From a virus, in IMG/VR virus record IMGVR_UViG_3300050821_008386, positions 1 through 64,000 of that record: a stretch of DNA of 64,000 nucleotides. The stretch is one strand, 5' to 3'. Positions 40,919 through 62,400 of this stretch are shown here, in pieces; the stretch's first letter is position 1, and every line of letters starts with the position of its first letter. Under the pieces are notes generated by a model, which saw only the letters and a program-made list of their open reading frames with translations, searched no databases and was not told the origin of the DNA. The translations under genes and the position numbers were made by a program.

Positions 40919-43900
40919 ACGCCAGCGAGTGCCGGAAGTCTCTTCTTCTTGGGAAGTTTAGGAACCTTGGGAGCGGCTGGAGCCGGTTTTCCGGGATGTT
41001 CCAACTGCTGCTTAACTAGCGCGTACGCTCCGTCGAGATAGTCACTGGTATGACTGCCCTTCTTGGCCGCGCCCGCTTCCTTGTATAGCTGTTGTTCGAC
41101 AAACCACAAAACGGCCTGAGCGTCCGCCATGTGCATATCGATACCTGCGCTCTTTAAGTTCTTGAGTACCTTCTCCATTATCTCCCGGTATAAGGGCCGT
41201 TCAGCCTGAGTCGGGGCGTCGTCAGTGAAGTGAAGGTTTTCTTTGATGTTTTTGGCGAGATAAGTGGTTGGGGTACGTTTTTCTACCGGATAAGATCTTT
41301 TCGTGCCGTCTGGATCAGTTGCCGGTCTAGCCGCTTCTTTGTCGGTGTTCTTCGCCCATGAATCCAACTCCGGCATCTCGCGGATAGCTTGCGCGCGAGT
41401 CATGTCCTCGTGATTCTGGATCGCGTCGATCTCATCCAGAATCTTGGCTTTCTGTTCATCGGGCATCTCGACTTCACCGCTTCGGATGCTTCGCCCTAAC
41501 TCGCCAACCTGCGATTTGAACGCGGTCGGGCTGAACCTAAACATACCGCCCGTCATCCGGTTCATGGTGCGCTTAAACCACATATCCATGACCAGCGCAT
41601 CGAAGTGTTTGCCAAGCGCCGAATAGAACTGGCCGATCTTAGGCCCGAGCGAGAGCGCAGCGTAGGTCGGGTGATCCGGTGCTTCGCCGCTGATATCCAA
41701 TCCGTAATCCCGCATCTGGCGGACAGTCATCTTCTTATCCAGAAGATCTTCAAGACCTTGCGCCCCCAATTTATCTTTCAGGGCGTTGAGCTTTTGAAAG
41801 CTCGAAATCATGGCCTTAATCTTTACGCCGCCACCGACAAAGTCTTTCGGGTCAGTCGGAAGTTCACCGTGATCTTTCCAGTATTGGTAGGCGTGATAAG
41901 CAGTTTCGGCGTTGTTATAGACGTTCTGACCGTTGGATGTCACCGCTAGTCCAAGGCGGTACATCATCCGGTTCTCGCGATTAGCGTCGATGGACGGGTC
42001 CAGATGTTGAGCGACGTATTTGACTGCTTCATCTGGGATCTTGTCGTACCAATCAAGGCCCGAAGCGTCTCCAGACAACCGTTTCATCACGTCGTAGGTC
42101 GCTGCACGCGCCATCTGGTTGCGCACCTTGGGATCGTTCAAGTCGAGTTTCCCGTTCTTGCTCTCGATCCAGTCTCCTAAGTTCTCGACTTTCCAGTTCA
42201 GTTTACCTTTCGGCAACTGGCCTTTGGAATATTCGGCAGACATCCGCGGAGGCTTGTTGTTCTCAAGCCATTCTTTCGCCTTTTGTTGTGCGTAAGCGAG
42301 TTTGGCTACCCGATCATCGGTATCGATCAACTTGGAGCGCATTTCCGCCGGCATCTTCTCAGGAGGCAGGAAAGCGACCGAGTGGTCCGTGTTGCTGTCC
42401 AAGGGACCGTGCCCGTTGACGGCAACTTTCTCATCTGGAGGCTCCGTGTTCTGAAGAGGTGGCGAAGGAGCGGACTCACTAGGCGTCTCTTCCCGTTCAG
42501 AAGGTTGAGCGGTCGTCGCAGGAGGGGTCCGGTAGCGGACCATCTCGTCGCCTGACGTGGTACCGTCGTAATCGCTGGTTTCTCGGACGTTGTTACCGTT
42601 CGCGCCTTTGGTCACCCTATCCGCTGGCATGAAGTTCACGTTCCCACTCCCTGGACTGAACGTTCCGCGGTTGCCCGTTGCTGATTTCACACTCTTTGGA
42701 TCGAAGGCAATGACGTGAGTGGTATCGTGAGTGAGTCCCGGCATCCCTTCCTGATAGTCGTCCCCGCCCCATTTCTCGAACGGTTCGTGGTCAATTATGC
42801 CATCGTGCCCCATCGCACGGAGAACTTCAGCGGCAACCGCGCCAGAGGAATGCTGGAAACCATCGTCCTCGAGCAATTGATGCATAGCGCGACTATTCCG
42901 CATCTTATCAATGATATTTCCTGCGTACGTGTGGTCACCGGGTTTTAAATGACGCAGCGTCTGGTCCAACATATCTTGCTCGCCACCAAGACCGTGCTTG
43001 TCGTAAACGTCCCTCACTGCCTGCCTGTAGTCGTTTAGATCAGAGGTGTTCCATCGCGTCGGATTAAGACCTCCGATCTCGACAGGTTGCTTGAGCGACG
43101 CATACAAGGGTTGAATGGAAGCATGTCCGCCATGCTCTCTGCCTTCGTATTCCCGACCTTCCCCCGTATAATTCGCGCTGGCGTCCTCTGGATTGTTGGA
43201 CATGTATATGCCGCGACCCCAATCCGCACTCGTGTTACCTAATCTGGGATCGTGAGTATCGTAATCCTGCGTGGTCCCGTGGTAGAGCCTCAGAGGTTTA
43301 CCATCCTGATCCGTCACTTTTGAGCCTTTAAACCACTCCTTGAAATCATGCGATTGCACCTGCGGATTCTCCGGGTGATCCACTATCCGTTCAGACGGCA
43401 TGAACGCTGGACTTTTCAGTTCGCGATTGTAGCGGATATCCTCGGATGAAAGTTCCTGCTTATTTCCGCGTGGACGCACTTTGATCTCGTTCATTGCGTC
43501 CCGAAGGCTAAGGAACCTGCCGCCGTCTGTGGTGTATCCAGCGACGAGGTCCCTTGTGCCCAGCGCGGGATTATCCTTGAGTGCCTTCCCCTCCGCGAAC
43601 TTATGGATGTTCCCTGTGTAGATCTTCCCGTCAGGCGTCCTGACAGCAGGGTCTTTAATCTTTTCAGGGGCATCACCTATGTGGTCACCCGGCATGAACG
43701 CCGCTGATCTAGGCTCAGATTGCGATGCCTCTGGACCGCTTCCTAGTAAGGGTCCGCGAGTTTTTGGGGATATGTACCTAGATATCTTCGTTGTAATCGG
43801 TTTTTCTCCCAAATACCGCCATGTTTTAGCTCCCTCGGGGTAACTGTCGGTAAACTTTACCCAATTATATTTTTTGGCGAGCGCATCCCTCAAGTCGCTG

Positions 43901-46900
43901 TCACTATCCAGTGCATGATGGATCTGATCGAATCCTCTTCCCATCCACTCATCGCTTTTAGCGTCAGGGGATATCCTGTCCTCTGGATCTTCTATGCCCT
44001 GATTATGAATGTCAGCATAAACGGAAGACAATCGCCTCCAACTGGGATCGCCTGACACGTCAAGAACCCTGTCTTTATCTACAGGAACAGTCGCCTCATA
44101 AAGATTAGGTCCGCCGAATCCCGGATTTTTAGTATAGGCTTTAGCGTGCTCCCTAGATTCAGAAAAGTGTGCTCCAGTGCGTGCCTCGCTATCCCTAGAA
44201 GCGCGAAATAACCTTACGGTGTCCCGATCATCACCCGGCATGAACTGAGCGCTTGGACGCTCCGGTAATGGTCCGCGAGTTTTTGGGAGGTTCTTAAGGT
44301 CTTCAGACGCCAATTGAGGCGCATTTCCTTTTTCCCTAGCCAGGGATGATGCCTTGATTTGGTTATTTCGTTTGGCAAGTTCCCATCCGGGACTTCCCTG
44401 AGTGACGAAGTTTCCGGTAGTCGTGAGGTAACCAGTTTCAATTTCGTGACCGCCAAGATGTTCGTTGTACTGGCTGATGGGTTCTCCCGAATCTCTGGCG
44501 TTGTCTATAGCTTCGCCATGCCAAGATCCGGAGTGAATTACTCCGTTTATCCTGACGGCAGGAGACTGAATCCTCTCCCGTTCCCCTCCCGGTCCTTCGA
44601 CCACGTCACCCGGCATAAACATGCTCATCTGCCCCGACTCCTGATCGCTCGGCGTCGCCTTCTTCGGTTCCACCGCTTTCTGCTCTTCGCCAGTCAGGCG
44701 GAACGGTTCGTTCCCGAAATCAAAGTCCCGATGTTTGGCGTTCTCGGTCGTTCCCTTGGTCAACCACGCTTCCCTTGCTTTTCGAACCTCGTTAGGTTCC
44801 TCGCCCGCGCTTTCTGCTGGCATAAACGCTACGCCTCCTCCATTCCTGAGGTTTGAATGTTCCTCCTCCAGTCCGTGAATCCGGGTGGCGAGTTCGTCCC
44901 ATTTCTTGTCCTCCTCGGGATTCGTAGTGTCGAGTTTAGCCTGTTGTTTCTCCAGATTTGCGCGCAGATGTTCATTTTTCTTAAGCCTGTCTCCAAGCGT
45001 AAGGGTATCAGAACCGGATGCTGGCGCAAGCATTCCTGACCCGCGTTCTTCGGAAGGTTTGCCAGCGCGTTCCGCCTCGGTTTCACCCGGCATGAATCCG
45101 GCTTTTACAATTCCTGACGGAGGGTAACCGCCTTCTTTCAATGCGCGCGCAATCGCTTCGTGGCCGGGATGAATCTGCTCAGACGCGTCTTCGCCGCTGG
45201 GCAGAATATCAATCGTGTTATCTGCTAAAAGTCGTTCATAACCCGAATGAAGCGTTTCTTTAGTCCAACCGGGCGTTTCTGCTTCGATCTTGGCGTGAAG
45301 CGGATTGGTTAAACCCTCTCTGATGCCGCTGGATTTGATTTCCGGTATCTGATGCTTGCCCAGTTCTGAAAGCGCGTCTCCGGCAGCGTTGATGAGCTCG
45401 CCGGGGTCTTCGTACGGCACCTCGGAGGTCTGGCTAACCTTGGCGTTGAGTTTGTCGGGATGTTCCGCTGAAGCGCTGAACAATTTCTCGCTCGTGATCC
45501 CGTAATTCTTTTTCAGGTACGCTTTGGAATCTTTATCGAGCGCTTTCCATGCTTCATGGAGATCCGCGATTTCGCCTTTGGGATAACTCATTCCGCCGGC
45601 GGATGTGGCGAGTTGATTATTCCGTTTGGCGGTCGGGAGGCCCCCGTGTTTCTGGATGGCCTGTAAAACCTCGAACTTGTGCGCTTGGCCTTCCAATTCA
45701 GCGTCACGTTTTGCTTCCGCTTCATCGATCTGTTGGGACCGCCCTTGCGCGATCGCTTTAGAAACCTCTTTCGGGTTTTTTGTTTCACCTGAAACATAAC
45801 CCTCGTTCCCTAACGCTAAGGCACGAGCCTGTCCGCTTGGCGTTCCCGGGTCCATCATGTCCTTGCCACTTAATCCCGCGCCTTTACCTTGCACGGCCAG
45901 ATTCCAGAAATCCGCTTTCGATTTCGCTTTTACAGGGTCGTTGCCAAACGTGTACGGTTCGAATCCGGGGGATTCCACTGGCAGATTAGCGCCTTCGGTA
46001 GGGGTTAATTTCGCGCTGCCGTCACCTTTCCATCCGTTGGAAATGTTATGGAGATACCCGCGCATGTCCTCTTCATCTACCGGATCGCCTGCTGGACCGG
46101 ATTTATAAGGTGATTCCGGACCTAATCTGTGAGCGATTTGCTGGGCGTTCGATGCGACCTTGTCTGGTGATATCCCGCCGTAGTAGAGAGAGTTCGGCGC
46201 GCCTTCTTTCCCCAGAGAGACGCCGACGTAACTTGGAACAATATTCTTTCCGGCTTGCTGACCGGGTGCTGTTCCTTCTGCTCTGGCATGTGCTCCGGAT
46301 TCTATTTGGGCTTCTTGCCGCTGCGCTGCTGTCGCCAATCCCTTGGCTTTTTGGGGCGCTGAGTTGTAGTCGATCCAAAGGTCTTGTCCCTCCGGAATCG
46401 CGTTTTGAATCGCTTTGATAACGAACTGCGATTTCTGGTTGGTCCCGTTTAGTAACCATTGATGAAACGGATCAATGGGATCGAAATATTTGCCGGTTAA
46501 TAGTCCGCTTGCCGGATCGTATTTAACCCGCTGATCGTCCGGCGCCAGGCTTGCCGCATGTTGTTCGCCAACCGTCTGTAAAACCTGTTTCTGGATCGCT
46601 GCGGTGTACGCTTCATCGCTCTGGCGTTCGCCTTGCACCACTTGTTCGTGCGCCCGGTCTTCAGCTTCCTGAATAGATTGCGCGGTAACAGGTTCGGAAG
46701 ATTTCGCCGCCGGTTCTGCGCCTTCCGTTGCTCCTTTGGCGGTTGCAGGTCCCTGAGTACCTTTTGGCGGTTCGGTTCCTGTCGCGTGTTCAACCACCTG
46801 TTCGCCGAAATCGACCGGACCCACAGGTTGTTGACCCGGAACCAAAGGTCCACGTTGCCCGTTGGAACCGATGCCGAACTGCGCCATGTACCGCGCATTG

Positions 46901-49900
46901 GATTCTATCTGCGCTGCAGATACGCCGGGATCAGGCGCGTGATTCGGGTCATAGACATCGATATAATTGGCGGCCACATGATGGTGTTTGCCGTCCATAT
47001 CGAAATCGCTCGGAGCGGTATCGTCCCACCGATAGGTTTTCCCGTCTTCCCCAATGAACTCTTCGCCGCTCGGCGCGCCGTTGATAGGATGCAATCCTCG
47101 AGCTCTTGCGCCTTCTAACGTTAGTCCGGCGCTATAACCCGGAATCATGCTGCCGGGTTTCTGGACATGCGCTCCGGCACCCACGCCGCGAAGACTGTTA
47201 TGATCCCAACTGTAATCGCCGGGATACCCGAATGCTCCGATGTTAGCGTGACCATGCGGTGCCATCGGTACAGGCGCTTCGCCTTTCATGGCGCGATGAA
47301 CTTGGCGTTGCGCCGTGCCAGGCTTAACCCCTTGTTGTCTCAGATGCTTCTGGACGCGTGCGGTTCCGGTCGTGGTTTCGGGAGTTTCCTGCGGTTCTTT
47401 CGGTTCAGGAGTCGTTTCCCCTGTGGGCGTCTCGGTCTTCTGTTGTTGTTGCTGCTCGGTCGTTTCTGGCGCGCCAGCTATGCTTCCTGTTGTCGGCGGT
47501 TGCGGTACGTTTGTCCCCGGAGGCACTGGGAGGTGGCCTGCATGCGGTTGCGGAGTCGGAGGTACCGGCCCCTGCGGTACAGGCGTGGGCGTTACCGGGC
47601 CTTGCGGGGTTCCAGTCGGTGGAATCGGTATTCCGCCGGAAGATTTAGGTTCTTCAGGCGTTCCGGTTTTAGGTGAAGTCGTCTCGGGTTCGGCAGCTTT
47701 CGTCTCACCTTTTGGCGTTTCCGTCTCAGCAGGAGGCGGTGTCGTCTCAGATTTCTTCGGAGGTTCTGACTCCTGTTTAGGTGTCTCCTTTGGTTGCTCG
47801 GGAGTAGGTGTCGGTCCGGAGGTGACTTTCCCCTCTTTAGGTATTTTACCGACGAGTTCGTTTACCTCGGGATAAGTCAGTCCACGATACCAGTTGCCTT
47901 TCCCATCGTTAAAATCGTACAGATCACCCGCTTTATTGAGTCCCGCGCTTCGCGGTTCAATTGGTCCTTTCTCAGGTTTAATGGTCTTGCCTGAACTTAG
48001 CGAAACATCAGGAGGAAGTTCGGCGTTCTTAGCGTTGACTGCGTTCCGTATCGCCTCAACCGCGTTCGTGGCGTCGTTCTGGACGTGTTTTTCCGCTTCC
48101 TCCGGGGTAAACCCTTTCTCGGACATCAACGCCTGCTTAGCGATATCCGCAGGCGTTTCTTTCGCCGGTTTACCTGCCTGACGTTCAGCGGTTTTCTTGT
48201 CTCTCAGCGCGTCGACTGCATTTTTAACGACCTCTTCCCACGTCTCGCCGGCGGTGGTTTGCGCCGCTTTCTTAGCGTCTGCCGCTGACCATCCAACGCC
48301 GCGCAAGCCTTTGATAACATCCGCTGGATTGACGTTAGGACCGGGACGTTGGGCTTTCGGTGGCGGTTGAGGAGCCTGGGTCGCGTTCTCTGGGGCGGGA
48401 GTGCCGCTTGTCGGTTGCGGAGCGGGTCCCCCACCGCCGCCTCCAGTGCTGGTCGAGGCTCCCTTTGTCCGATTGGGTTGATTGAACAGGTCTGGACCTT
48501 GATTCGGTCTGGCGTTCGGATTAGGTCGATCCAAAACCGGTGGTGCACCCGCGCCTTGTCCCAGATTCCTTCGAAGCGTATCCCTGACCAGCGGTTCAAG
48601 AACCATGGCCGCCTGAATGGATTGTCTCAATCCCAGAACCGTATTGGACCGCGTGGTCGTGGGATTAAAACCCATGTCATCCAGAACGCGCCAGAAGGCT
48701 TGCTGGGTCTGATGGAACATGGTCGGGTCACGGGTCAGATCTCTGATACTTCCGCCTTTAAGGAGTCCTGATAACGCTTCGGTCGCCATCTCCCTCTGCA
48801 TATCTTCCTTGGTCATTCCGCGGAGGCCCGGGACGAATTGCCCCGTCCCGTTATTGATCTCGGTCTGACTCGGCAACTGGTCGTAGGTGGCGCTCTGTTG
48901 ACCTAACGTTGCCCGACTGGTGTAATCGGAGGTGAAATCGTTGGGGTCATTTGTCCGACTGAACGCTTGGAAGAAAGTCGATAGATCTTGCGGATTACCC
49001 AACTCCATCCGCGAGATGATCGGGTGCGCCAGTTCATGATGAAACGCGTCATCGAAAGCGTCTGCGCGGACCAGTACCCGCGCCTGATTCTGACCTGGAT
49101 TGGGGTCAATGGCGACTCCGCGCGAGTTCATTACCGGATCGTTCATCCAACCTAAGTTCTGCATCCGTTCCATCTCTGCGGCGTACGGTTTCGGATTGAG
49201 AACGTAAATCTCGCTCATCCCGTTCGCTTGAGTTCTGGTCTGATTGATCAGATGCTTTTGCGCGTTGGAAAACATCGGTTTCCCGGTCGCTGGATCGAGG
49301 GAATTGAGCGCTTGTTCGTGCGCTTCATCGAGAGCTTTATTGGTCCCGTACGGCGTCGGCGGATCTGCCGGTTTACGGCTTTGCCCCCAATTGGTGTCGG
49401 TAATGAACGCTGAATCAGCTAACCGATTTTGAGCAATCGCCGCAGCGTCAGGGACGGCGTGACTCAAGAGGCCCAGGCTCGTCCCCATCCCTAAAAGTGA
49501 ACCAATATCCTGCGGAGTTTTGGCTCCCAAAAGCGCAGGCGTCATACCCATCATCCCTTCACCTGCCCGCTGCATTCCGGTAACGAGGATCTGTTTAGCC
49601 GCGCTCCGGGTTGCCAGAAGGTTTTCGGAATTGTCTGCGGCAAGTCGCATCGCGTCCGCAGCGTGTGAGGCCAAAAACGATGTCGCTTTAGAAATGTTTC
49701 CGGCACCGCCCGCAATCAGGTCCACGCCGTAATCGACTAGCGGCATCTTGAACATCCCGGCGGCGACAGCGGCCAATGGGCCGGGTATCCCGAGAGTTTG
49801 TCCGATATAATGGCCTGCGATAGCTTTGGTCGCGGTCCCCACGAGGCCTTTGGCGATCTTGGTCGCAACCGGCGGCATCTGGAAATCGTGCATGTTCTGT

Positions 49901-51582
49901 GCCATGTTTTCCAGACCGCCCGCAATACTCCTTTGGGTAGCTTGTACCGAAGAATTAAGGACTGAAGTAATCCCGGCCGCTTCCGCTAACCGTCCCACTA
50001 ACCCCAGTCCGACCATTCCTTCCCCGAGATTAGCGGTAGCCGCAGTATCCTGAATGGCTTTCAGGGGTATCGGAAACCCTTTAGCGGCGTATCCTTCGGG
50101 AGTGTCTACGGTGCGTCCCGCAAACGCGTTAAGCATCTGCTGAGTGCCCTGCCCAACGTATCCCTCGCTTCTGGCCGCGTGCAGCCCCGATTGCATCCGG
50201 TCTGTATACAGTTGCGCGGCCATCTGTTTGGGATCCATATCCATGTAGCTTTTATCGCTACGGATCGGCGCGCCGCGGCTAGCCATGATCGCTTGAAAAC
50301 GCGGGTCGATATAACCGATCTCAGGACCGCCCAAAAGTTTTAAAACGGCGTTTGGCGCGGTGGAACTTAATCCGATTAAATGGCTGATCGAGTTTTCCGC
50401 CCATTCAGTGAATTGCGCGGTTCCTTCTTCAGTACCGGCAACCAGAGCGCGTTCGGCGCGTTCCCGGTTGAGGTCGGTCACGGTCTGATGCTCGAGGTTG
50501 ACTGGAGAAGTTTTGTCGTTGTCGTACTTGGGCTGGACAGGTGCCGTTCCACCCGCTTCTTTCGGGGCGAGCGCGGCGCTGATCCCTTCCGCTTCAGCCT
50601 GGCTCGCGTTCGGCGCTTCAGGAACGCCGGGAACGGCATTAGAAGGTGCCACGATATTCCCGATGTTGGCTGCCGCGCCGAAAAGTTGGCCCGGTATTTC
50701 GACCGGCGAATGAATAAAAGCGTCACGCCACGAACTTAAAACGCCGCCTAACCAGTTAATGGCGTTCTTGGCGTCTTGAACTGTTTTCTGCCAATCAGCC
50801 TGAAACTGTTCAGCGTCCGTCTCGGATTTAAGTCCACCAGACGCATCCATTTGATCCTTCATCTGGGCGTGAAGAATCATTGCTTGCGCGGTCTGGAAAT
50901 CGTCGATCTGATGGTGAGCAAATGCTTGAGCGATCTTGTCAGGATTGCCGTCATAAGGCTTGATCGCGTCATCAAGGCGTTGTTGTTCCTGCGCTTGCTG
51001 GAATTCTGGGCCTTGATTGAGATCTTTCCCGTACGGACTGCTTTCAGGTTGGGTCGCTAATTCAGGAGGCGGGAACCCTTTCTGCTGGGTCGGTTGCGCT
51101 GCGGCGATTTCAGGAGGCGGAAACCCACCTTTAGGCGGTGGCGGAAGCGGGTCCGGCGGTGGATCTGGCGGGGTAATGGTCTGAGGCGCGCCCGCTAACG
51201 AATTCTGGATGACCGCCTTATTCTCGTCATCCGTCAACGCCATCGGGTTATTAGCCTGCGCGTTAAGACTCTGTTGAGTGGGATTAAGATGATCCTCGGG
51301 ATTATCCGGCGCGAGCGGTGTCGGAGTGGGGGCGAGGAGCGAACTTACCCCATCTTCAGGGGACATCGGCGGTTGAGTCGGCGTAACCGTGGTGGGCGAC
51401 GGTTGCGGTTGCGGAGGAGGAATCGGGGGCGCGCCTGCCGCCTTGAGTTCAGGCGGATGGAACGGGATGATGTTGGAGGCCGAAGTCGCCGCTTGTCCTG
51501 CCGCTTTGAGTTCGGGCGGTTGAACCGAAGGAGTAGCCTCTGCGTCGGGTAGTGATGCGCTTGGCGCGCTGGCAGGAGGCAT
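40915..51582 (-). CDS. Giant 3555-aa polyvalent internal virion/ejection protein
   Basis: HHELAH zincin motif; 3D-like domain; ART-like YHGT..GRGIYMS..GHDGII; C-terminal GPKIGQFY..VMDMW; last gene of structural operon. Confidence 0.82.
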   Translation of the reverse strand: MPPASAPSASLPDAEATPSVQPPELKAAGQAATSASNIIPFHPPELKAAGAPPIPPPQPQPSPTTVTPTQPPMSPEDGVSSLLAPTPTPLAPDNPEDHLNPTQQSLNAQANNPMALTDDENKAVIQNSLAGAPQTITPPDPPPDPLPPPPKGGFPPPEIAAAQPTQQKGFPPPELATQPESSPYGKDLNQGPEFQQAQEQQRLDDAIKPYDGNPDKIAQAFAHHQIDDFQTAQAMILHAQMKDQMDASGGLKSETDAEQFQADWQKTVQDAKNAINWLGGVLSSWRDAFIHSPVEIPGQLFGAAANIGNIVAPSNAVPGVPEAPNASQAEAEGISAALAPKEAGGTAPVQPKYDNDKTSPVNLEHQTVTDLNRERAERALVAGTEEGTAQFTEWAENSISHLIGLSSTAPNAVLKLLGGPEIGYIDPRFQAIMASRGAPIRSDKSYMDMDPKQMAAQLYTDRMQSGLHAARSEGYVGQGTQQMLNAFAGRTVDTPEGYAAKGFPIPLKAIQDTAATANLGEGMVGLGLVGRLAEAAGITSVLNSSVQATQRSIAGGLENMAQNMHDFQMPPVATKIAKGLVGTATKAIAGHYIGQTLGIPGPLAAVAAGMFKMPLVDYGVDLIAGGAGNISKATSFLASHAADAMRLAADNSENLLATRSAAKQILVTGMQRAGEGMMGMTPALLGAKTPQDIGSLLGMGTSLGLLSHAVPDAAAIAQNRLADSAFITDTNWGQSRKPADPPTPYGTNKALDEAHEQALNSLDPATGKPMFSNAQKHLINQTRTQANGMSEIYVLNPKPYAAEMERMQNLGWMNDPVMNSRGVAIDPNPGQNQARVLVRADAFDDAFHHELAHPIISRMELGNPQDLSTFFQAFSRTNDPNDFTSDYTSRATLGQQSATYDQLPSQTEINNGTGQFVPGLRGMTKEDMQREMATEALSGLLKGGSIRDLTRDPTMFHQTQQAFWRVLDDMGFNPTTTRSNTVLGLRQSIQAAMVLEPLVRDTLRRNLGQGAGAPPVLDRPNPNARPNQGPDLFNQPNRTKGASTSTGGGGGGPAPQPTSGTPAPENATQAPQPPPKAQRPGPNVNPADVIKGLRGVGWSAADAKKAAQTTAGETWEEVVKNAVDALRDKKTAERQAGKPAKETPADIAKQALMSEKGFTPEEAEKHVQNDATNAVEAIRNAVNAKNAELPPDVSLSSGKTIKPEKGPIEPRSAGLNKAGDLYDFNDGKGNWYRGLTYPEVNELVGKIPKEGKVTSGPTPTPEQPKETPKQESEPPKKSETTPPPAETETPKGETKAAEPETTSPKTGTPEEPKSSGGIPIPPTGTPQGPVTPTPVPQGPVPPTPQPHAGHLPVPPGTNVPQPPTTGSIAGAPETTEQQQQQKTETPTGETTPEPKEPQETPETTTGTARVQKHLRQQGVKPGTAQRQVHRAMKGEAPVPMAPHGHANIGAFGYPGDYSWDHNSLRGVGAGAHVQKPGSMIPGYSAGLTLEGARARGLHPINGAPSGEEFIGEDGKTYRWDDTAPSDFDMDGKHHHVAANYIDVYDPNHAPDPGVSAAQIESNARYMAQFGIGSNGQRGPLVPGQQPVGPVDFGEQVVEHATGTEPPKGTQGPATAKGATEGAEPAAKSSEPVTAQSIQEAEDRAHEQVVQGERQSDEAYTAAIQKQVLQTVGEQHAASLAPDDQRVKYDPASGLLTGKYFDPIDPFHQWLLNGTNQKSQFVIKAIQNAIPEGQDLWIDYNSAPQKAKGLATAAQRQEAQIESGAHARAEGTAPGQQAGKNIVPSYVGVSLGKEGAPNSLYYGGISPDKVASNAQQIAHRLGPESPYKSGPAGDPVDEEDMRGYLHNISNGWKGDGSAKLTPTEGANLPVESPGFEPYTFGNDPVKAKSKADFWNLAVQGKGAGLSGKDMMDPGTPSGQARALALGNEGYVSGETKNPKEVSKAIAQGRSQQIDEAEAKRDAELEGQAHKFEVLQAIQKHGGLPTAKRNNQLATSAGGMSYPKGEIADLHEAWKALDKDSKAYLKKNYGITSEKLFSASAEHPDKLNAKVSQTSEVPYEDPGELINAAGDALSELGKHQIPEIKSSGIREGLTNPLHAKIEAETPGWTKETLHSGYERLLADNTIDILPSGEDASEQIHPGHEAIARALKEGGYPPSGIVKAGFMPGETEAERAGKPSEERGSGMLAPASGSDTLTLGDRLKKNEHLRANLEKQQAKLDTTNPEEDKKWDELATRIHGLEEEHSNLRNGGGVAFMPAESAGEEPNEVRKAREAWLTKGTTENAKHRDFDFGNEPFRLTGEEQKAVEPKKATPSDQESGQMSMFMPGDVVEGPGGERERIQSPAVRINGVIHSGSWHGEAIDNARDSGEPISQYNEHLGGHEIETGYLTTTGNFVTQGSPGWELAKRNNQIKASSLAREKGNAPQLASEDLKNLPKTRGPLPERPSAQFMPGDDRDTVRLFRASRDSEARTGAHFSESREHAKAYTKNPGFGGPNLYEATVPVDKDRVLDVSGDPSWRRLSSVYADIHNQGIEDPEDRISPDAKSDEWMGRGFDQIHHALDSDSDLRDALAKKYNWVKFTDSYPEGAKTWRYLGEKPITTKISRYISPKTRGPLLGSGPEASQSEPRSAAFMPGDHIGDAPEKIKDPAVRTPDGKIYTGNIHKFAEGKALKDNPALGTRDLVAGYTTDGGRFLSLRDAMNEIKVRPRGNKQELSSEDIRYNRELKSPAFMPSERIVDHPENPQVQSHDFKEWFKGSKVTDQDGKPLRLYHGTTQDYDTHDPRLGNTSADWGRGIYMSNNPEDASANYTGEGREYEGREHGGHASIQPLYASLKQPVEIGGLNPTRWNTSDLNDYRQAVRDVYDKHGLGGEQDMLDQTLRHLKPGDHTYAGNIIDKMRNSRAMHQLLEDDGFQHSSGAVAAEVLRAMGHDGIIDHEPFEKWGGDDYQEGMPGLTHDTTHVIAFDPKSVKSATGNRGTFSPGSGNVNFMPADRVTKGANGNNVRETSDYDGTTSGDEMVRYRTPPATTAQPSEREETPSESAPSPPLQNTEPPDEKVAVNGHGPLDSNTDHSVAFLPPEKMPAEMRSKLIDTDDRVAKLAYAQQKAKEWLENNKPPRMSAEYSKGQLPKGKLNWKVENLGDWIESKNGKLDLNDPKVRNQMARAATYDVMKRLSGDASGLDWYDKIPDEAVKYVAQHLDPSIDANRENRMMYRLGLAVTSNGQNVYNNAETAYHAYQYWKDHGELPTDPKDFVGGGVKIKAMISSFQKLNALKDKLGAQGLEDLLDKKMTVRQMRDYGLDISGEAPDHPTYAALSLGPKIGQFYSALGKHFDALVMDMWFKRTMNRMTGGMFRFSPTAFKSQVGELGRSIRSGEVEMPDEQKAKILDEIDAIQNHEDMTRAQAIREMPELDSWAKNTDKEAARPATDPDGTKRSYPVEKRTPTTYLAKNIKENLHFTDDAPTQAERPLYREIMEKVLKNLKSAGIDMHMADAQAVLWFVEQQLYKEAGAAKKGSHTSDYLDGAYALVKQQLEHPGKPAPAAPKVPKLPKKKRLPALAGV

Positions 51583-55420: not shown

Positions 55421-56713
55421 TTAGCCTTCCGGTCCCTTTCTTGCGAGAGCCAATCTGGAGAGACAAACCCTCAGTTCAGCCACACTGCTGATCCCTGTTT
55501 CCCGCAAATAATTATCGAGCGTTCCGGCGATCTCTAATCCGGTCGCTTCCAGATGTTCCTGAAACATCCCTTGCAGGTTTTCGGTGAAATCGATTCCAAC
55601 CGTATCGGTGTTTTCCCGGTCGACAATGATCCGTTCAGCGTCCGCGCAATCGTCCAACCACATCTGGAGTTGGTTATGGGTCCGCATGTAATCCAGGATC
55701 GTCTGGGTCTGCCGTCGGAACATGCAGGTCGTGATATAAGTCTCGTGCAGTTTCCTGATCCGAGCGTTCTGGATGGTCATCACCTCGAAATTGGCCGGCG
55801 TCATCGCGTTAGCGTTGAGCCAGTCCAGATACTGATCCCAAACCACCAACCGATTGCGCGCACAGAACGTTGACCATTCGTACTCGATATCTTCTTTGGT
55901 CACCGCAACATGGAGGATGTCCGCCAGAATCACCGCTAACGCCCGGTTTTTCGAATCCCAACAGATCTGGTTATATTGCGGGCAATTGAGGGTGATATAG
56001 GAATCGACGTGCTGCATCGTGATCGTCGCTCCCGCATGCTCCACTCTCCGTTCCCTCTCTAACATGGCGTTAAAAAGCATCGTCATGTAGGTCAGGTCAG
56101 GCCGTTTATCCGTGCAATAATCCAGGGTCAGGAAATTCGATAAAAGATGAAGAGCGTCTTCCCGTTTCTGATCAAAAACGTAACGCGAATCGGGACTGGT
56201 CAGGCGTTCGGTATAATGTTTGCCCTGTTCAGTCTTAAAGATTTCCCCGGCTTCTTCCGGCGTAATTTCCTCACTTTCAATCAACCGAAGGAGGCCAGCG
56301 CGGAGATTGACCAGAGGGCAAGTGTCGCAAACGTAGTTTCCTGAAGGCGTCTGATGATAAATCACCGCTACTTCGTCATCTGCGTCGATTACCCCTTCGT
56401 GATACCACTCGAAGATCTTCCCAGAACCGATCATCACACCCACATCTGCTAATTCAGATGCCCGCAGGGCTCCCATGGACGATGAACCGTAAACCTTGAT
56501 CCCTTTTAGTGCCGCCCAGCTTAATTCCTTATGCCAGACGGGCAATTTAGAATCGAAAACACCATCAATCAGCAGGATATGGGTCGGGTTATACTTCGGG
56601 ACGTCCGAAATGATGTCAGCATGACTGGCTGGAGGGAGGAAAACAGCGTCGGGAACGATCTCTTTAGCGAATCCAACGTCTAATGAGGGCCCGAGATAAA
56701 CCAAAACTTTCAC
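55421..56713 (-). CDS. tfuA: TfuA-like protein with C-terminal extension
   Basis: VYLGPSL, LIDGVF, VWHKEL, GSSSMGALRASEL, GSGKIFEWY..G.I..DDEVAV. Confidence 0.95.
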   Translation of the reverse strand: MKVLVYLGPSLDVGFAKEIVPDAVFLPPASHADIISDVPKYNPTHILLIDGVFDSKLPVWHKELSWAALKGIKVYGSSSMGALRASELADVGVMIGSGKIFEWYHEGVIDADDEVAVIYHQTPSGNYVCDTCPLVNLRAGLLRLIESEEITPEEAGEIFKTEQGKHYTERLTSPDSRYVFDQKREDALHLLSNFLTLDYCTDKRPDLTYMTMLFNAMLERERRVEHAGATITMQHVDSYITLNCPQYNQICWDSKNRALAVILADILHVAVTKEDIEYEWSTFCARNRLVVWDQYLDWLNANAMTPANFEVMTIQNARIRKLHETYITTCMFRRQTQTILDYMRTHNQLQMWLDDCADAERIIVDRENTDTVGIDFTENLQGMFQEHLEATGLEIAGTLDNYLRETGISSVAELRVCLSRLALARKGPEG

Positions 56714-57930
56714 GCGTGCTCCTTAATTGACGCGAGTTTGTTGTGGACGTGAAGTTTGCATCGTTCATCCGGTTGCCAGAATTCCCAAATAGGACTGCAA
56801 AGTGATGGGGAGATCGCTCGAACAATGGTGAACGCCGGTTCTTTGGATTCGTAGAGGATTTTCGAGTAACATTCCGAAACCCCTCGTTGCCGGATTCGGT
56901 TAGAAAGAATTTCCCATTCTTCAGTGATTGAATCGAACTCCGGACGCGGGAATTCAGACGCCAAACGTGATAACGGCACCGCTTGATACATCTCAAGGAG
57001 TTGCCGGGAATCGATGTTCTTAGTCAGCATGAACCGGCGCCGGAACAGGTCGTCACGCGCTGAACCGATGTAAGCGACACGCGCCTGGCACGCTTCAGTG
57101 ATCGCCCTGCGCATCGCGGTCGAAGAATTAAGCGAACATCCGTACCCGGAAAAGATGCCGGGAGAGCGCGAACTCGGATCGATCACGGTGCATCCGAACA
57201 CCGGGACCTGCATATCGTTGGAAAGATCGAAGAGAAACGGGTAAACCCCTGCCCGCGCTAGTGCTTCCAGACAAAACTCGATTTCTTCGGTCAACGGACA
57301 ATCGAAACTGACTCGGTCAGGCCAGATATCGGTTTGTTCACGCAAATATTCGCTGGTAGCCCATCCATCACGTTCCACCAGTTCGTAGACCGCTTGCAGA
57401 AGAGCGTCTTCATAATTGATTCCGGCCGCCAGACCGTTGGACGAACTCTGGAAATAATGAAAAGGCGGTATGACCCGGTGCGTCAGCCAGATCATGTCGC
57501 TCGGAACGAGGATCTCGCCTTCCCTGAAAACGTCTGTAACTATCTCCCATGGAATTGGAGTCGAAGAATAAACTGGTGCTCCGCGTGCCAGAGGGAATAA
57601 ATCTGTCCCTAGAACGGATGGAAAGACAGAGATCGCTCGCGCCGGTTCGAGGTAAAACCAAGGGACATTGGCGTGCGGCTTCTCGCCGGCCCAGAGCTCG
57701 ACGCCTTCCAGGATCGCACCCGCTTTCGCGGCGATCTTGGAAAGACCTTTTCCTGCGCTTACCGTTATCACTTCGCCGCCCGGACGCGATACGGTGTAAA
57801 CCGGTAGTCCGATGGTATCAAGGCCCGTGATATCCGAAGCGCGCGTCAGTCCGTACTCCATCAATCGCGAATAGGGTAACGCGCATATCTCGCGTGCTAG
57901 CTCCTCGCGGACGTGTTCCCGGTCGATCAT
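56710..57930 (-). CDS. ycaO: YcaO-family enzyme, TfuA-associated thioamide-forming type
   Basis: TR..DITGLDTIGLPV, GKG..A..GAILE..E, SSNGLAAG..ELVERD, GYGC..RAITEACQAR; start set at ATGA overlap 57927-57930. Confidence 0.95.
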   Translation of the reverse strand: MIDREHVREELAREICALPYSRLMEYGLTRASDITGLDTIGLPVYTVSRPGGEVITVSAGKGLSKIAAKAGAILEGVELWAGEKPHANVPWFYLEPARAISVFPSVLGTDLFPLARGAPVYSSTPIPWEIVTDVFREGEILVPSDMIWLTHRVIPPFHYFQSSSNGLAAGINYEDALLQAVYELVERDGWATSEYLREQTDIWPDRVSFDCPLTEEIEFCLEALARAGVYPFLFDLSNDMQVPVFGCTVIDPSSRSPGIFSGYGCSLNSSTAMRRAITEACQARVAYIGSARDDLFRRRFMLTKNIDSRQLLEMYQAVPLSRLASEFPRPEFDSITEEWEILSNRIRQRGVSECYSKILYESKEPAFTIVRAISPSLCSPIWEFWQPDERCKLHVHNKLASIKEHA

Positions 57931-59570
57931 GCCGCCAGTGGCAACGACGGAAGGTTTGCGCATCGGACGCCGTACCGGAACCGGATAACGTTGCGATTGC
58001 GTTCCAGAACTTCGTCCATGAACTCTCGGATATTGGCGATCACTTCAGGATCCACGTCTTCCCGGTTAGCGAACGTCTCGCTGTATCTGAGGTAAAGGCC
58101 TTTGAGCCAACCGGGCGCGTTGAAATAAAGCCAGAGACGGAACAAACGCCATTCAGGATTGTTCGCGCCATAGACTTTTCTTGCGACGTGACACGACATG
58201 GCGAAAGCCACTCCGACTGCTACCGCGCTTGCTGCGCCTGCGCCGCCTGAGATCATGTTGCCGCTCGATTGAGCTTGCGCACTGGCGTTTTGCGCGGCGA
58301 TCTGGGTGTTGTACTGCGCGCCCTGAACTTTGGTCGAGTACAGGTACTGCATCATGTTGTTTAGCCCTGCAGTGTTCGATAAACTGATGTTGGCAGCGTC
58401 CGACCCTTGTAACCCGAACGAGCGCGGTTGAAACATCGAAGAAGCCAGACCGAAACTTGCGTTGGCGTTCTGTGCAGCGCTATTGATGATCCCCTGACCG
58501 CCTTGCATAGCGTTTGACCCGGCACTTTCCAGTCCGGTCCCGGCGCCGATCATGCTTGTTCCGGCGTTAGTAACCCCTGTTCCCGCCCCAATCATGCCGC
58601 TTCCGGCATTGATGACACCGGTCCCTGCGCCGATTACGCCGCTGCCCGCGCCGATCATCCCGGTACCGGCATTAGCAACATTGGTTCCCGCTCCGGCAAG
58701 AGTCGCCGCTGCCCCTGCTTGGCCGGTAGTAAGTCCCATCCCGGTCTGTTGCAGCGCTTGCCCCTGCTGGCGCTGCGTATTGACCCAGTTTTCCGCGCCG
58801 ACACCGAGATTTCTTCCCACAGCGGCCTGCCCAGCTTCCCCACCTAATCCTGCGGCACCTCCAAGCGCAGATGCCGCACTGCTTAGTCCGCTTCGCATCA
58901 GTTCTTGTTGGACTACCGGATCAATCGCCTGATTGCCCGAGATGAGGTTCTGGCCCAGCGTGATGTCAGGTTGACCTACTCCTTGCGCTCCGGCAGCAAG
59001 AGTCGCCGCGGGCGCGAGAAATTGGCCTGATTGCCCCGCAAGATTCTGGCCTGCGCCGATGATGTTCTGTCCTGTACCGATGATGCCCTGCCCCCAGCCT
59101 GCGATGTTCTGGCCTTGGCCGATGATGCCTTGACCTGTTCCTGCGAGATTTTGACCTTGCCCAACGATATTGGAACCCGAAGTCAGCATTCCTTGGCCTG
59201 CGTTACTTAAACTGTTTCCGGCAGCGATCGATTGTGGCGTCTGGGTACCCAGCAAGTTGGTCAAGTACCCCTGATACTGCTGCTGTGCCTGAATCATTTG
59301 CGGATAACGCGCCGCGAAATCGGCGTCGCTCATCGCATAGTTCAGTTGATTGGCCATGATCGCCTGGCCTTCAGGAGTGTTAACGCCAGCAGCGCCAGCA
59401 GCCCCTAATCCCGAAGCATTCAGAACGCCGCTCATACTGCTGGAACCAGGAGATGGGGTCTGGTTTTGCAGTGCGCTAATGTATTGGTCTGCGCCGATAC
59501 CCGCGCTCGGAGTGAACGAAGGAGCGCCCGCCGGGGCGCTATAGCTTGGGATCTGAGGTGCACTGCCCAT
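57927..59570 (-). CDS. Gly-repeat probable ejection/pilot protein with C-terminal C.VAR.VYG..W..FR domain
   Basis: 7-residue Gly repeats; position after tail genes. Confidence 0.7.
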   Translation of the reverse strand: MGSAPQIPSYSAPAGAPSFTPSAGIGADQYISALQNQTPSPGSSSMSGVLNASGLGAAGAAGVNTPEGQAIMANQLNYAMSDADFAARYPQMIQAQQQYQGYLTNLLGTQTPQSIAAGNSLSNAGQGMLTSGSNIVGQGQNLAGTGQGIIGQGQNIAGWGQGIIGTGQNIIGAGQNLAGQSGQFLAPAATLAAGAQGVGQPDITLGQNLISGNQAIDPVVQQELMRSGLSSAASALGGAAGLGGEAGQAAVGRNLGVGAENWVNTQRQQGQALQQTGMGLTTGQAGAAATLAGAGTNVANAGTGMIGAGSGVIGAGTGVINAGSGMIGAGTGVTNAGTSMIGAGTGLESAGSNAMQGGQGIINSAAQNANASFGLASSMFQPRSFGLQGSDAANISLSNTAGLNNMMQYLYSTKVQGAQYNTQIAAQNASAQAQSSGNMISGGAGAASAVAVGVAFAMSCHVARKVYGANNPEWRLFRLWLYFNAPGWLKGLYLRYSETFANREDVDPEVIANIREFMDEVLERNRNVIRFRYGVRCANLPSLPLAA

Positions 59571-59585
59571 TTAGAAAATATCCTT

Positions 59586-59939
59586 TCAATCTGAGATCAC
59601 GTAAACGTCTTTATCGAAGGGTCTTAACCCGATCTTTGAATACATGCGTGCGTCCACTCCTGGTGGCATAGCAATCAGCGGGTCGCCGTGCATCGCCTTG
59701 ATCCGGTCCAGCCATTTCTTAGTCAGGATATAGAATTGGCGCGGAGAAATTGACGGTTGCACCGCCGGGTAAGCCACCATCTGCTGATGCATGTGGCAGT
59801 AAGTCACCAGTCGCCCGTCCAGATGCCCTACCCAGATCGGGAAAAGTCTGCTCACCTCGTGCCCGAACGTTGCCGCGAACTCATCGAGATTATGCGCCCT
59901 CAATTGCTTCTCGTTTTCGATCTTGGTGAACGTGATCAT
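59586..59939 (-). CDS. Small tail-operon protein, possibly GNAT-fold
   Basis: Start at ATGA overlap; MYSKIGL resembles GNAT C-terminal motif; slot typical of podovirus acetyltransferase-like genes. Confidence 0.55.
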   Translation of the reverse strand: MITFTKIENEKQLRAHNLDEFAATFGHEVSRLFPIWVGHLDGRLVTYCHMHQQMVAYPAVQPSISPRQFYILTKKWLDRIKAMHGDPLIAMPPGVDARMYSKIGLRPFDKDVYVISD

Positions 59940-61462
59940 AACTCGGCGTTTGCGGTATACTGAAACCGGATGGCGTTGGAAGGAGACGTCCACGAACCGG
60001 CGGTGCTGATCAGGTCGAACCCGCTTTCATTCAGTGTCTGAGTGGTAGTGATGCTCCCTACCGTGACACCTTGAGACTGGGAATAGACCCCCCCTGACCT
60101 TCCGTCAGACCCCAGCACGGTCCATGTTACTAAATTGGGTGTCGTGCGCATCTTGACCGGGAAACGGCACACTCCCCATGCTTGCGTAGCGGCCAGGGCG
60201 ATAAAGGCGAGTTCTCCTAGAGATGAGGCGCCGCTGGTAAAGGTGATTGTTGAACCGGAACTATTCGTTCCAATCAGAGCGGCACTCAACGTGACGGTAG
60301 TCGGAGATACCGCAGACACTGTCACGCCGGCGGAAATATTGGTTCCAAACACTGGCATCCCGACAGCCACTGCCGCGATTCCGGGTGCGGTCGTGGAAGC
60401 GAAACTTAAAACGGTCGCACCCACGAGAACTGTTGTGTTGGTCACCAGGTTGAATGCCACCGGGTAAACGCTCATCGGATGCGATTTAGCCCAGTACCTC
60501 TGGCACCGCCTTAAATCTTCGTCGAATGGGACGAACTTGAAGTAGTTGGAGATAGGGGACGGTTCGTGTTGAACCAGAGTGATATCAAGGGTGTTGCCAA
60601 TCGTCGCGAACAGATTGGTCTGATTCGCCGTTCCGAGCTGGTTCTCGGAATTCCAGATATTCGGCAGATCCTGATAATCTGATCCGTTGGTCGCACTGAC
60701 CGAAATTACGTAGCAAGAATCAGTGTTCACTGTCCCCCAGTTGCCGGTCGAGGTGGGCATCGCCGGGATAGTCGGGAAAGTAAAATACTGAGGGACCGAG
60801 GGCGTGGTGATGACGCATTCCATCACGTACGACCACGTCTGGTCCGCATCTCTGATAGCGACACAATAAGTCCCGGCAAGAGAAGATTGGAGCACGATGG
60901 AAAGCGACGTTTCGTTATCAAAGAGGGGCCGGGAAAAGCCGCGTTCGATTCTCTGGGTAACGACGAAATATTCTCCGGCGGCGATCGTCAATTGAGCGGT
61001 GGTCACCGTCATCCGTAACGCCATCTGGGTATCAGGGTATTGAGAGGTTCCCGGAAAATTGACTACCTGCTGAGTGACTGTCGCCGCCCCGCCTCCTGTC
61101 ATATTACTGGTAACCACCCATCTGTCAGCGGTATAAACGGCCTGAGTGGTCCCGATATTCGGGAACGTGACGTTCCTCTGCCAGATCTGCATGTTGGCAT
61201 TGATGACCGAGTTATAAATCGGACTCGAAGTGATCGGCAGATATTCGGATTGCGCGGTGTTCCACGCCCACCATTGTCCATCGTTAAACCACGGTCCCAC
61301 ATTACTGGGCGGCGTTGATCCGCCGGTTTGCCCTAAAAGGAAATTAGCGGTGATCGACGCCTGGAGATTGGCCACCAGCAATTGGCCGTACTGATTGGCA
61401 TCCAAGGATTGGCCTGTAGGGATGGGTGCCAGAGAGAAGATGATGGGAATCGTGGTAGCCAT
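59936..61462 (-). CDS. Tail fibre/appendage protein
   Basis: INANMQIWQR..YTADRW..EDLRRCQRY..FPVKMRTTP. Confidence 0.8.
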   Translation of the reverse strand: MATTIPIIFSLAPIPTGQSLDANQYGQLLVANLQASITANFLLGQTGGSTPPSNVGPWFNDGQWWAWNTAQSEYLPITSSPIYNSVINANMQIWQRNVTFPNIGTTQAVYTADRWVVTSNMTGGGAATVTQQVVNFPGTSQYPDTQMALRMTVTTAQLTIAAGEYFVVTQRIERGFSRPLFDNETSLSIVLQSSLAGTYCVAIRDADQTWSYVMECVITTPSVPQYFTFPTIPAMPTSTGNWGTVNTDSCYVISVSATNGSDYQDLPNIWNSENQLGTANQTNLFATIGNTLDITLVQHEPSPISNYFKFVPFDEDLRRCQRYWAKSHPMSVYPVAFNLVTNTTVLVGATVLSFASTTAPGIAAVAVGMPVFGTNISAGVTVSAVSPTTVTLSAALIGTNSSGSTITFTSGASSLGELAFIALAATQAWGVCRFPVKMRTTPNLVTWTVLGSDGRSGGVYSQSQGVTVGSITTTQTLNESGFDLISTAGSWTSPSNAIRFQYTANAEL

Positions 61463-61485: not shown

Positions 61486-62400
61486 CTACGTTTTTATAAT
61501 TTTAGTCATAACTAAGCTTGGTTGAATGTTGTTATGGCCCGTGCCGCCTCCTGCCGCATTATTTGTTGCGGTAGCGTTTTCTATGGCGGCAAAGCCAGCG
61601 GCGATTGCCGCGTGCCCTTCCGCGATCGAGGCAAAGCCCGTGTTAATTCCGATACCTGTACCGCTGGGATTGGTCGCGGCACTCCCGGATTGGAAGGTAC
61701 TGCCTCCAGCGAGACTGCTGCCGGGGGCAGAAAGGACCGCGTTAACATAGCCGTGAACATGCCCTGGGTCAGTGATGCCGTGAGCGTGCCCGTTATCAGA
61801 ATGGAAGTGACCAGAGTCAGAATGCAAATGGCCCGCGTCAGCGTGCGCGTGAGCGTTTTGAGTGTGATTGTGACTTGCCAGTTCGCTTACGGCTAGGACG
61901 TGATTTTCTTCCCCTACCTTCTGGCCGATCGTTCTCGCTGTCAGGCCCGATCCGGCACCGGTACCTAGCCCAACCCTGCCTCGAGCGTCGGGTACAGCGA
62001 AAGTGGAACTGCCATCACCCGCGCCGTAGCTTGTCCCGATGACCGAAAACAGTCCAGCCATAGCCCCTGTGCGCAGATAAAGAGAACCGTCACAAAGAAC
62101 GAATCCTGTCGGAGCAACTATCCCGCCGAAATCGATGATTGAACCTGTTGGGAAACTGGAGGTTAAACTCTGCGGAATATATTGTTGGCTGCCCGGATCC
62201 CAGTAGTACCAGACGCCGTTATTGAACCAAGGACCAATGTCGGCGGTGGGCGCTGAACCGCCGATTTGTCCCGTCAAAAACTGGCCTGAGATGTAGGCTT
62301 GCAGGTTCGAAACCAGAATCTGGGCATATTGGTTGGCGTCCAAACTTTGTCCGGTAGGAATTGGCGCACAAGAAAAAGTGATGGGAAACTGGAGAGCCAT
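61486..62400 (-). CDS. Tail collar domain protein (short fibre)
   Basis: PTGSII.FGG..APTGFVLCDG..LFSVIGT.YG.GDG..TFAVPD.RGR; HxH repeats; HNNIQP. Confidence 0.9.
   Translation of the reverse strand: MALQFPITFSCAPIPTGQSLDANQYAQILVSNLQAYISGQFLTGQIGGSAPTADIGPWFNNGVWYYWDPGSQQYIPQSLTSSFPTGSIIDFGGIVAPTGFVLCDGSLYLRTGAMAGLFSVIGTSYGAGDGSSTFAVPDARGRVGLGTGAGSGLTARTIGQKVGEENHVLAVSELASHNHTQNAHAHADAGHLHSDSGHFHSDNGHAHGITDPGHVHGYVNAVLSAPGSSLAGGSTFQSGSAATNPSGTGIGINTGFASIAEGHAAIAAGFAAIENATATNNAAGGGTGHNNIQPSLVMTKIIKT

Follow-up and report, generated by a model that had tools for sequence, protein, structure and literature searches.

A Gly- and Ala-rich phage protein encoded directly upstream of a YcaO-TfuA pair is a candidate for backbone thioamidation

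Among full-size proteins, enzymatic backbone thioamides are on record for McrA (methyl-coenzyme M reductase), where a whole protein is thioamidated by YcaO enzymes (PMC5589413), and for the ribosomal protein uL16, which is thioamidated by the YcaO of E. coli (PMC13063428). The partner protein TfuA marks those YcaOs that form thioamides (PMC13063428). Thioamitides and thiovarsolins (PMC10125368, PMC6511847) share with the locus described here the YcaO-TfuA pair, an adjoining substrate gene (here a candidate) and a stretch rich in Ala/Val that ends in Cys. Here we analyse gene X of the virus record IMGVR_UViG_3300050821_008386 (IMG/VR), which is followed immediately by genes for YcaO and TfuA. 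The window, i.e., the whole stretch of DNA that was analysed, is the first 64 kb (64,000 nucleotides) of this 131,760-bp record. In the reading that we favour, and to which we give an even chance of being right, X would be a protein of the internal virion or ejection type, and the YcaO-TfuA pair translated along with it would thioamidate its backbone.

Among described systems, the archaeal McrA YcaO-TfuA system (TIGR03266/NF033432; structures 6pe3 and 6xp8) combines the same enzyme pair with a full-size protein substrate and provides the best models and structures for the phage pair. The phage YcaO matches PF02624 over profile positions 1-324 of 325, i.e., the full-length ATP-binding domain (E 1.9e-50), and scores 111.5 bits with TIGR00702, above the cut-off of 75.65 bits. 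Its best NCBIfam model is TIGR03266 (McrA-glycine thioamidation YcaO), with 136.8 bits and under the 365-bit equivalog cut-off, and its closest solved structure is 6pe3 (MJ1094; E 3.5e-22). Read from the start codon adopted in Table 1, the protein has the length seen in its relatives. The best NCBIfam model of TfuA is NF033432 (McrA-glycine type), with 137.8 bits and under the 235.2-bit equivalog cut-off; M. acetivorans TfuA 6xp8 is its closest structure both by sequence match and by fold match (E 4.3e-13, template modelling (TM) score 0.78 on the target). Judged by sequence, the phage YcaO and TfuA are thioamidation-type enzymes. They depart from the archaeal system in scoring far under the equivalog cut-offs, in the additional ~250 amino acids (aa) of TfuA, in a candidate substrate that is virion-type and encoded immediately upstream, and in the absence of ThiS from the phage. 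The TfuA extension (window 55421-56100, minus strand, residues ~205-430) is helical and could be aligned in 17 X-type phages; a PDB fold search matched the N-terminal TfuA domain only and left the extension without a match. The three genes are tightly packed. The stop codon of X (TGA, 57929-57927) overlaps the in-frame ATG of YcaO (57930-57928) in a shared ATGA, YcaO and TfuA overlap by 4 nt (GTGA), and there is no room between X, YcaO and TfuA for a separate small precursor gene.

The linkage of X to these enzymes is strict. All five IMG/VR relatives found with the X alignment have YcaO immediately downstream, with a long TfuA next where the contig reaches that far. In the reverse search, which started from the phage YcaO, the gene directly upstream matched the X profile in 16/16 loci, and TfuA came next in 15 of them, i.e., in all those whose contig extends far enough. 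These 16 loci and 20 more from a metagenome scan make up a set of 36, in which YcaO directly follows X in each of the 33 with at least 300 nt downstream, or in 23/23 when distinct X tails are counted, a figure given because some loci are the same contig reached via both IMG/VR and the Joint Genome Institute (JGI). Most X/YcaO pairs overlap by 4-20 nt. Sequence identity across the linked loci is low (~25-35% for X, 31-39% for YcaO), and no YcaO-less full-length member of the X subfamily was seen. Two divergent carriers, L151 and L152, match X in the last ~110 residues only and retain the carrier-YcaO-TfuA order; their TfuAs are short (188 and 209 aa) and lack the extension, and the carriers end in ...AASS-C and ...AALS-C before the C-terminal domain. 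By BLAST, L151 shares the C-terminal domain alone, with X and with YcaO-less carriers alike, and the YcaO of L152 used as a query matched only itself. A search of species-representative genomes, limited by its pattern, found no relatives of X, and among the YcaO-linked phages no cultured member was met with. Its constant place directly before YcaO-TfuA makes X the best candidate for a phage structural protein modified with sulfur.

X consists of 16.5% Gly, 16.1% Ala and 9.3% Gln; it has 13 homologs in the protein collection, and Pfam, PHROG and NCBIfam scans returned zero matches. The first-pass annotation, made from the sequence alone, had noticed two blocks of Gly heptad repeats and an Ala-rich segment preceding a compact C-terminal domain, and all of these are present (Table 1). 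Gly-Gly coincidences number 34 at lag 7 and 37 at lag 14, as compared with 14.5 +/- 3.2 in shuffled sequences, and neither value was attained in any of 5000 shuffles of X. Block 1 differs in length between homologs via insertions and deletions, and block 2 is missing in several of them. At the DNA level, the repeat is diverged and detectable in block 1 only, which scores as a 21/42-nt tandem repeat with 65-75% matches; the heptads are therefore old repeats and not recent duplications. Between the two blocks lies a conserved central motif, in which Q221, Q222, G228, G237, G247 and G256 are invariant over 36 aligned X sequences. The segment GGAGAASAVAVGVAFAMSC corresponds to X residues 442-460 (about 58191-58247) and ends in Ser-Cys460. 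Cys460 is invariant in 36/36 X proteins and, together with R478 and Y493, in the C-terminal domain of the X-family alignments; 87 residues follow it. An AlphaFold2 model of X built with 19 sequences has a mean predicted local distance difference test (pLDDT) value of 49.8, with low-confidence helices over most of the length, and a four-helix domain at residues ~455-535 (pLDDT 80-91). A fold search with whole X returned generic long-helix matches only (Z about 5).

Table 1. Coordinates of gene X, of its parts and of the surrounding genes in the window
Feature	Position	Strand	Description
Gene X	57927..59570	-	547 aa, ATG start; Gly/Ala/Gln-rich candidate YcaO-TfuA substrate
Gly heptad block 1	59016..59162	-	X residues 137-185: GQGQNLA GTGQGII GQGQNIA GWGQGII GTGQNII GAGQNLA
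Conserved central motif	58785..58955	-	X residues ~206-262: DPxVQQELMRSGLSSAASALGG...AGQAAVGRNLG
Gly heptad block 2	58506..58673	-	X residues 300-355: GTGMIGA GSGVIGA GTGVINA GSGMIGA GTGVTNA ...
Ala/Val-rich uncharged pre-Cys stretch	58194..58250	-	X residues 441-459, ends Met-Ser; Kyte-Doolittle maximum 1.64
Cys-led helical C-terminal domain	57966..58193	-	X residues 460-535; starts CHVARKVYG; CHVARKVYG..W..FR.WL..LY
YcaO	56710..57930	-	406 aa from ATG at 57930; longest open reading frame (ORF) starts 57963
TfuA	55421..56713	-	PF07812, E 1.1e-34; conserved C-terminal extension of ~250 aa
Small GNAT-like protein	59586..59939	-	117 aa from ATG at 59939; directly upstream of X
Tail-fibre gene	59936-61462	-	phrog_4492
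Tail collar gene	61486-62400	-	Collar domain
Giant ORF	40915-51582	-	3555 aa; closes the gene block

The C-terminal domain of X is one copy of a more common module, in which an uncharged hydrophobic stretch leads into C-W-V-A-R-x-x-Y-G ... W-x-x-F-R-x-W ... Y, in the final 62-85 residues of the protein. Its C, R, G, F, R, W and Y are invariant in 83 sequences, including the copy in X, which reads C-H-V-A-R-K-V-Y-G. A degenerate DNA pattern for W-V-A-R-x-x-Y-G-x5-W-x-x-F-R-x-W matched at least 120 IMG/VR stretches, 80 of which were taken as phage module loci. In these, the motif lies in the last 62-85 residues of every ORF with a complete tail (one ORF runs into the end of its contig), the complete ORFs range from 310 to 1949 aa, and the Cys before the motif is present in 80/80 although it was absent from the search pattern. 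The X profile aligns with many of the YcaO-less carriers well beyond the module, e.g., over positions 6-479 with L026 and 1-478 with L022. On sequence grounds, X is a member of a broad phage family, often with a Met-Gly N-terminus, that combines a long low-complexity helical body with a hydrophobic stretch and the Cys-led domain.

The YcaO-less members of this family also indicate what kind of protein X may be. In the 12 such loci examined out of 78, the carrier always sits after virion or tail genes and is followed by further proteins of structural size, which include a giant of 900-2400 aa in 10/12. Among isolate phages, the sole module carrier is Puniceispirillum phage HMO-2011, whose gp25 has the same module (39% identity over residues 460-533, reading FCWVAREVYG after a hydrophobic stretch) in the same position, with tail-fibre genes on one side and large proteins downstream; its record is, unlike that of X, without YcaO, its pre-Cys stretch is Gly/Leu/Ile-rich and ends in Lys-Phe-Cys, and it has no Gly heptads. 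The ejection proteins of T7-like (gp14-16) and P22-like (gp7, gp20 and gp16) phages are comparable in that X heads a block that follows the tail genes and ends in a giant protein, and in that X has a low-complexity helical body with a hydrophobic segment; Pfam and PHROG scans gave no sequence or profile match to them. The ESM Atlas placed X in viral hypothetical clusters, with a weak P22_gp7 lead (13% of one cluster, score 0.85). By position and composition, X is most likely the first protein of a putative internal virion (ejection-type) block in a podovirus-like phage. X begins with Met-Gly (window 59565-59570), as do 34 of the 69 complete YcaO-less carriers (L017-L096), in which this start often continues as a Gly run or as Ser-x-Pro; in X-type phages, the conserved N-terminal Gly of X adjoins the GNAT-like gene.

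A comparison of orthologs from phages with and without the enzymes, which the first-pass annotation had proposed, reveals that the repeats and the pre-Cys segment of the linked proteins are not those of the wider family. Heptads of the form (G.G....)x3 occur in 23/36 linked and 0/78 YcaO-less proteins; the 20 residues before the Cys contain 40.7% Ala, 16.5% Gly, 10.7% Ser, 10.6% Thr, 9.4% Val and no charge in 27 distinct linked proteins, as against 26% Gly, 17% Ala and 10.3% Leu in 75 distinct YcaO-less ones; and the residue at -1 to the Cys is Ser or Thr in 20/27 versus 3/75, all these statistics being taken without regard to relatedness. The outcome of this comparison favours the first-pass proposal. 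The pre-Cys stretch is Ala/Val/Thr-rich in the linked proteins and Gly/Leu-rich in the YcaO-less relatives. The fallback offered by the first-pass annotation, in which the Ala-rich stretch would be an ordinary helix by which an ejection protein inserts into membranes, suits the wider family well.

In the mechanism that we propose, the YcaO-TfuA pair would have been inserted directly behind the gene in one branch of the family and would be translated together with X. YcaO would activate at least one backbone amide of X at the expense of ATP, TfuA would supply sulfide equivalents from a host ThiS-like thiocarboxylate, and sulfur would replace the backbone oxygen to give a thioamide before X is packaged into the virion. 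The likeliest site would be the Ala/Val/Thr-rich stretch just before [Ser/Thr]-Cys460, with the Gly heptads as a second candidate; the pre-Cys stretch is favoured since its change went along with the arrival of the enzymes, and since L151 and L152 share only the C-terminal part of X. The likely benefit would be a segment that is stiffer or resists proteases, or a membrane-active one with altered hydrogen bonding. A complex prediction for YcaO with X residues 425-547 scored 0.00 in both runs and speaks neither for nor against this proposal.

The more specific version of this reading, i.e., that a phage clade applies the chemistry of ribosomally made peptides that are modified after translation (RiPPs) to its own structural protein and builds backbone thioamides into the membrane-active segment of one of its ejection proteins, falls slightly short of an even chance in our estimate. 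The phage system would then be a candidate new form of the known YcaO-TfuA kind, acting on a thioamidated phage structural protein of a sort not described before; a literature search of partial coverage found no paper on phage YcaO/TfuA or on thioamides in virions. If true, X would follow McrA and uL16 as a third kind of thioamidated protein; it would be the first from a virus and also the first to have its gene placed like a 'precursor' before its enzymes. With a natural substrate and its enzymes encoded next to each other, substrate recognition by thioamide-forming YcaOs and the role of the extended TfuA would become directly testable in E. coli, and phages would be found to harden or tune their ejection proteins post-translationally with chemistry hitherto associated with natural-product pathways.

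Several observations weigh against the thioamidation of X. YcaO/TfuA accompany the module in only two of the 80 sampled phage loci, both of them already-known X loci, and the other 78 have no YcaO nearby, although at least 3 kb of downstream sequence is at hand in 60 of these. With a profile of the 83 modules, at least 1870 clusters of proteins (at 50% identity) are matched at E<=1e-3; in the 150 matches listed, it is at or near the C-terminal end that the module lies. In bacterial genomes, at least 135 stretches carry the module pattern, mostly in Planctomycetota and Verrucomicrobiota assemblies, and neither YcaO nor TfuA was near the module in any of 78 bacterial loci (L173-L250). The hydrophobic stretch plus the Cys-led domain does without YcaO in bacteria and in the majority of phages. 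Further points on the same side are that both phage enzymes miss the McrA-type equivalog cut-offs (TIGR03266, NF033432), that a search of the phage for a ThiS-type sulfur carrier gene found none, and that heptads are missing in 13/36 members of the X family. Adjacency alone is also weak evidence, because phage structural operons keep their gene order anyway. Finally, the linked proteins form one clade, so that the correlation between their features and YcaO may reflect a single lineage event: in a tree of the 83 modules, whose alignment includes the pre-Cys stretch, the 10 linked rows make up one group (support 98/71). L151 and L152 sit on long branches within this tree, and the YcaO-linked carriers may have had two separate origins or one, as the single group would suggest.

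The nature of the module bears on how X might be recognised. The first-pass annotation had regarded the C-terminal domain as a recognition or processing element for the enzymes, an idea that does not hold up in the face of the same module in 78/80 phage loci without YcaO, in HMO-2011 and in bacterial genomes. NF041770 (CFI-box-CTERM), likewise a Cys-led C-terminal domain of ~70 aa, is matched by 67/83 modules at E<=1 (best 3.6e-5), as compared with 3/83 for the next family; one of these matches covers the full profile (positions 1-69), all of them are under the 40-bit cut-off, and X's own copy has no match at E<=1 or at E<=10. These matches suggest that the module is a distant relative of CFI-box-CTERM and not a member of it. 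Since it is distantly related to CFI-box-CTERM, the module is not a YcaO-specific recognition element, which adds to the points against X as a substrate. The large carrier proteins of the Planctomycetota and Verrucomicrobiota assemblies often have two modules, one internal and one C-terminal, each after poly-Gly/Met runs (e.g., L175:1702-6495, L211:4845-9713); the internal copies argue against a pure C-terminal sorting signal. The Cys-led module emerges as a large family without a Pfam model that connects phage internal proteins, Planctomycetota proteins and CFI-box-CTERM; a literature search of partial coverage found no CFI-box-CTERM paper. The best match of the module profile, P0016 (702 aa, E 3.0e-58), contains two matched stretches, i.e., a duplicated module.

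Much of this evidence also fits an alternative that we consider distinctly less probable than thioamidation of X and yet the most serious of its rivals. X may be an ordinary, unmodified internal virion or ejection protein, with YcaO-TfuA acting on another virion protein or, once infection has begun, on a host protein, or being itself carried as packaged cargo; the adjacency would then reflect one ancestral insertion site, later kept by the gene order of the structural operon. The occurrence of the same family, module and gene position without YcaO in 78/80 loci and in HMO-2011 speaks for this alternative, as does the grouping of the linked proteins in one clade. A further point in its favour is that, to our knowledge, the known protein substrates of YcaO, McrA and uL16, are as a rule not encoded beside the operon partner of the enzyme. 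The linked loci speak against it. Neither loss nor relocation is seen in 33/33 and 16/16 loci despite an identity of ~30%, the ATGA coupling is kept, the features specific to X appear together with the enzymes, and even the divergent L151 and L152 retain the arrangement. The first-pass proposal that X is a YcaO substrate keeps the support of a strict and tight linkage to YcaO-TfuA and loses part of its weight to the fact that a single clade is involved. The E. coli system is comparable in that YcaO modifies the backbone of a folded cellular protein and not a small peptide; it differs in that YcaO works without TfuA and the uL16 gene is not adjacent to that of YcaO (PMC13063428), whereas the phage has both TfuA and a neighbouring candidate substrate.

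A different chemistry at the Cys itself appears improbable. YcaO enzymes also form azolines from Cys, and the enzyme could act at the [Ser/Thr]-Cys460 junction to install a thiazoline or a single thioamide that controls cleavage or attachment at the Cys. Such a role would be in keeping with a Cys that is invariant in 80/80 modules and 36/36 X proteins, with a residue -1 that shifts to Ser/Thr only in the YcaO-linked proteins, and with a SagD-type model as the third-best match of the phage YcaO; the internal modules of Planctomycetota, placed after Gly-rich linkers, would likewise fit a processing site. It is harder to reconcile with the neighbouring genes, among which there is no E1-like or dehydrogenase partner, or with the presence of TfuA, which marks thioamide-forming YcaOs (PMC13063428) and not cyclodehydratases, and cleavage at the module found no support in this analysis.

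The resemblance to thioamitides noted in the first-pass annotation stands as far as the Ala/Val-rich composition is concerned and fails beyond it: X has 547 aa, a folded domain begins at its Cys, which is internal and does not end the protein, there is no short leader-core precursor, and export genes are lacking, as are the thioamitide tailoring genes known to us, the neighbours being tail-fibre genes, the GNAT-like gene and proteins without family matches. That a RiPP-like core embedded in X is released as a thioamitide-like peptide, with the C-terminal domain as the YcaO-TfuA recognition element, is the least probable of the explanations, since the likeness of AVAVGVAFAMSC to a thioviridamide-type core in composition (PMC10125368) is set against a C-terminal domain common where YcaO is absent, a neighbourhood in which family scans detect no protease, exporter or thioamitide tailoring gene, and a protein that belongs to a structural family and can be aligned with relatives lacking YcaO along most of its length.

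The genes around X are arranged on the minus strand in the order tail collar, tail fibre, small gene, X, YcaO and TfuA, followed by ORFs of 387, 773 and 3555 aa. The likely ATG of the small gene (59939) overlaps the stop codon of the tail-fibre gene, again as ATGA. Its product falls into viral GNAT cluster(s) of the ESM Atlas (0.97 by features, TM 0.62 by structure); tblastn matches lie directly upstream of X in 34 loci, and a GNAT-like hidden Markov model matched 16 ORFs in X-type loci, as against none in the 78 YcaO-less loci and none in L151 or L152. This GNAT-like enzyme may modify X in addition to YcaO-TfuA. No BLAST relatives of the 387-aa and 773-aa proteins were found in the other loci. 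The 3555-aa giant shares a phrog_21376 region with the giants downstream of the YcaO-less carriers L039 and L043, and its residues 1673-1897 are related to a protein of more than 1040 aa in L005. The record holds two tail-collar-type genes, the one listed in Table 1 and another at G000:C1:120520-121368 on the plus strand; they lie ~60 kb apart on opposite strands and match the same set of PHROG tail families. A DNA methyltransferase gene (35308-36321, minus strand; phrog_67, E 1.7e-72) is found in the non-structural part of the window.

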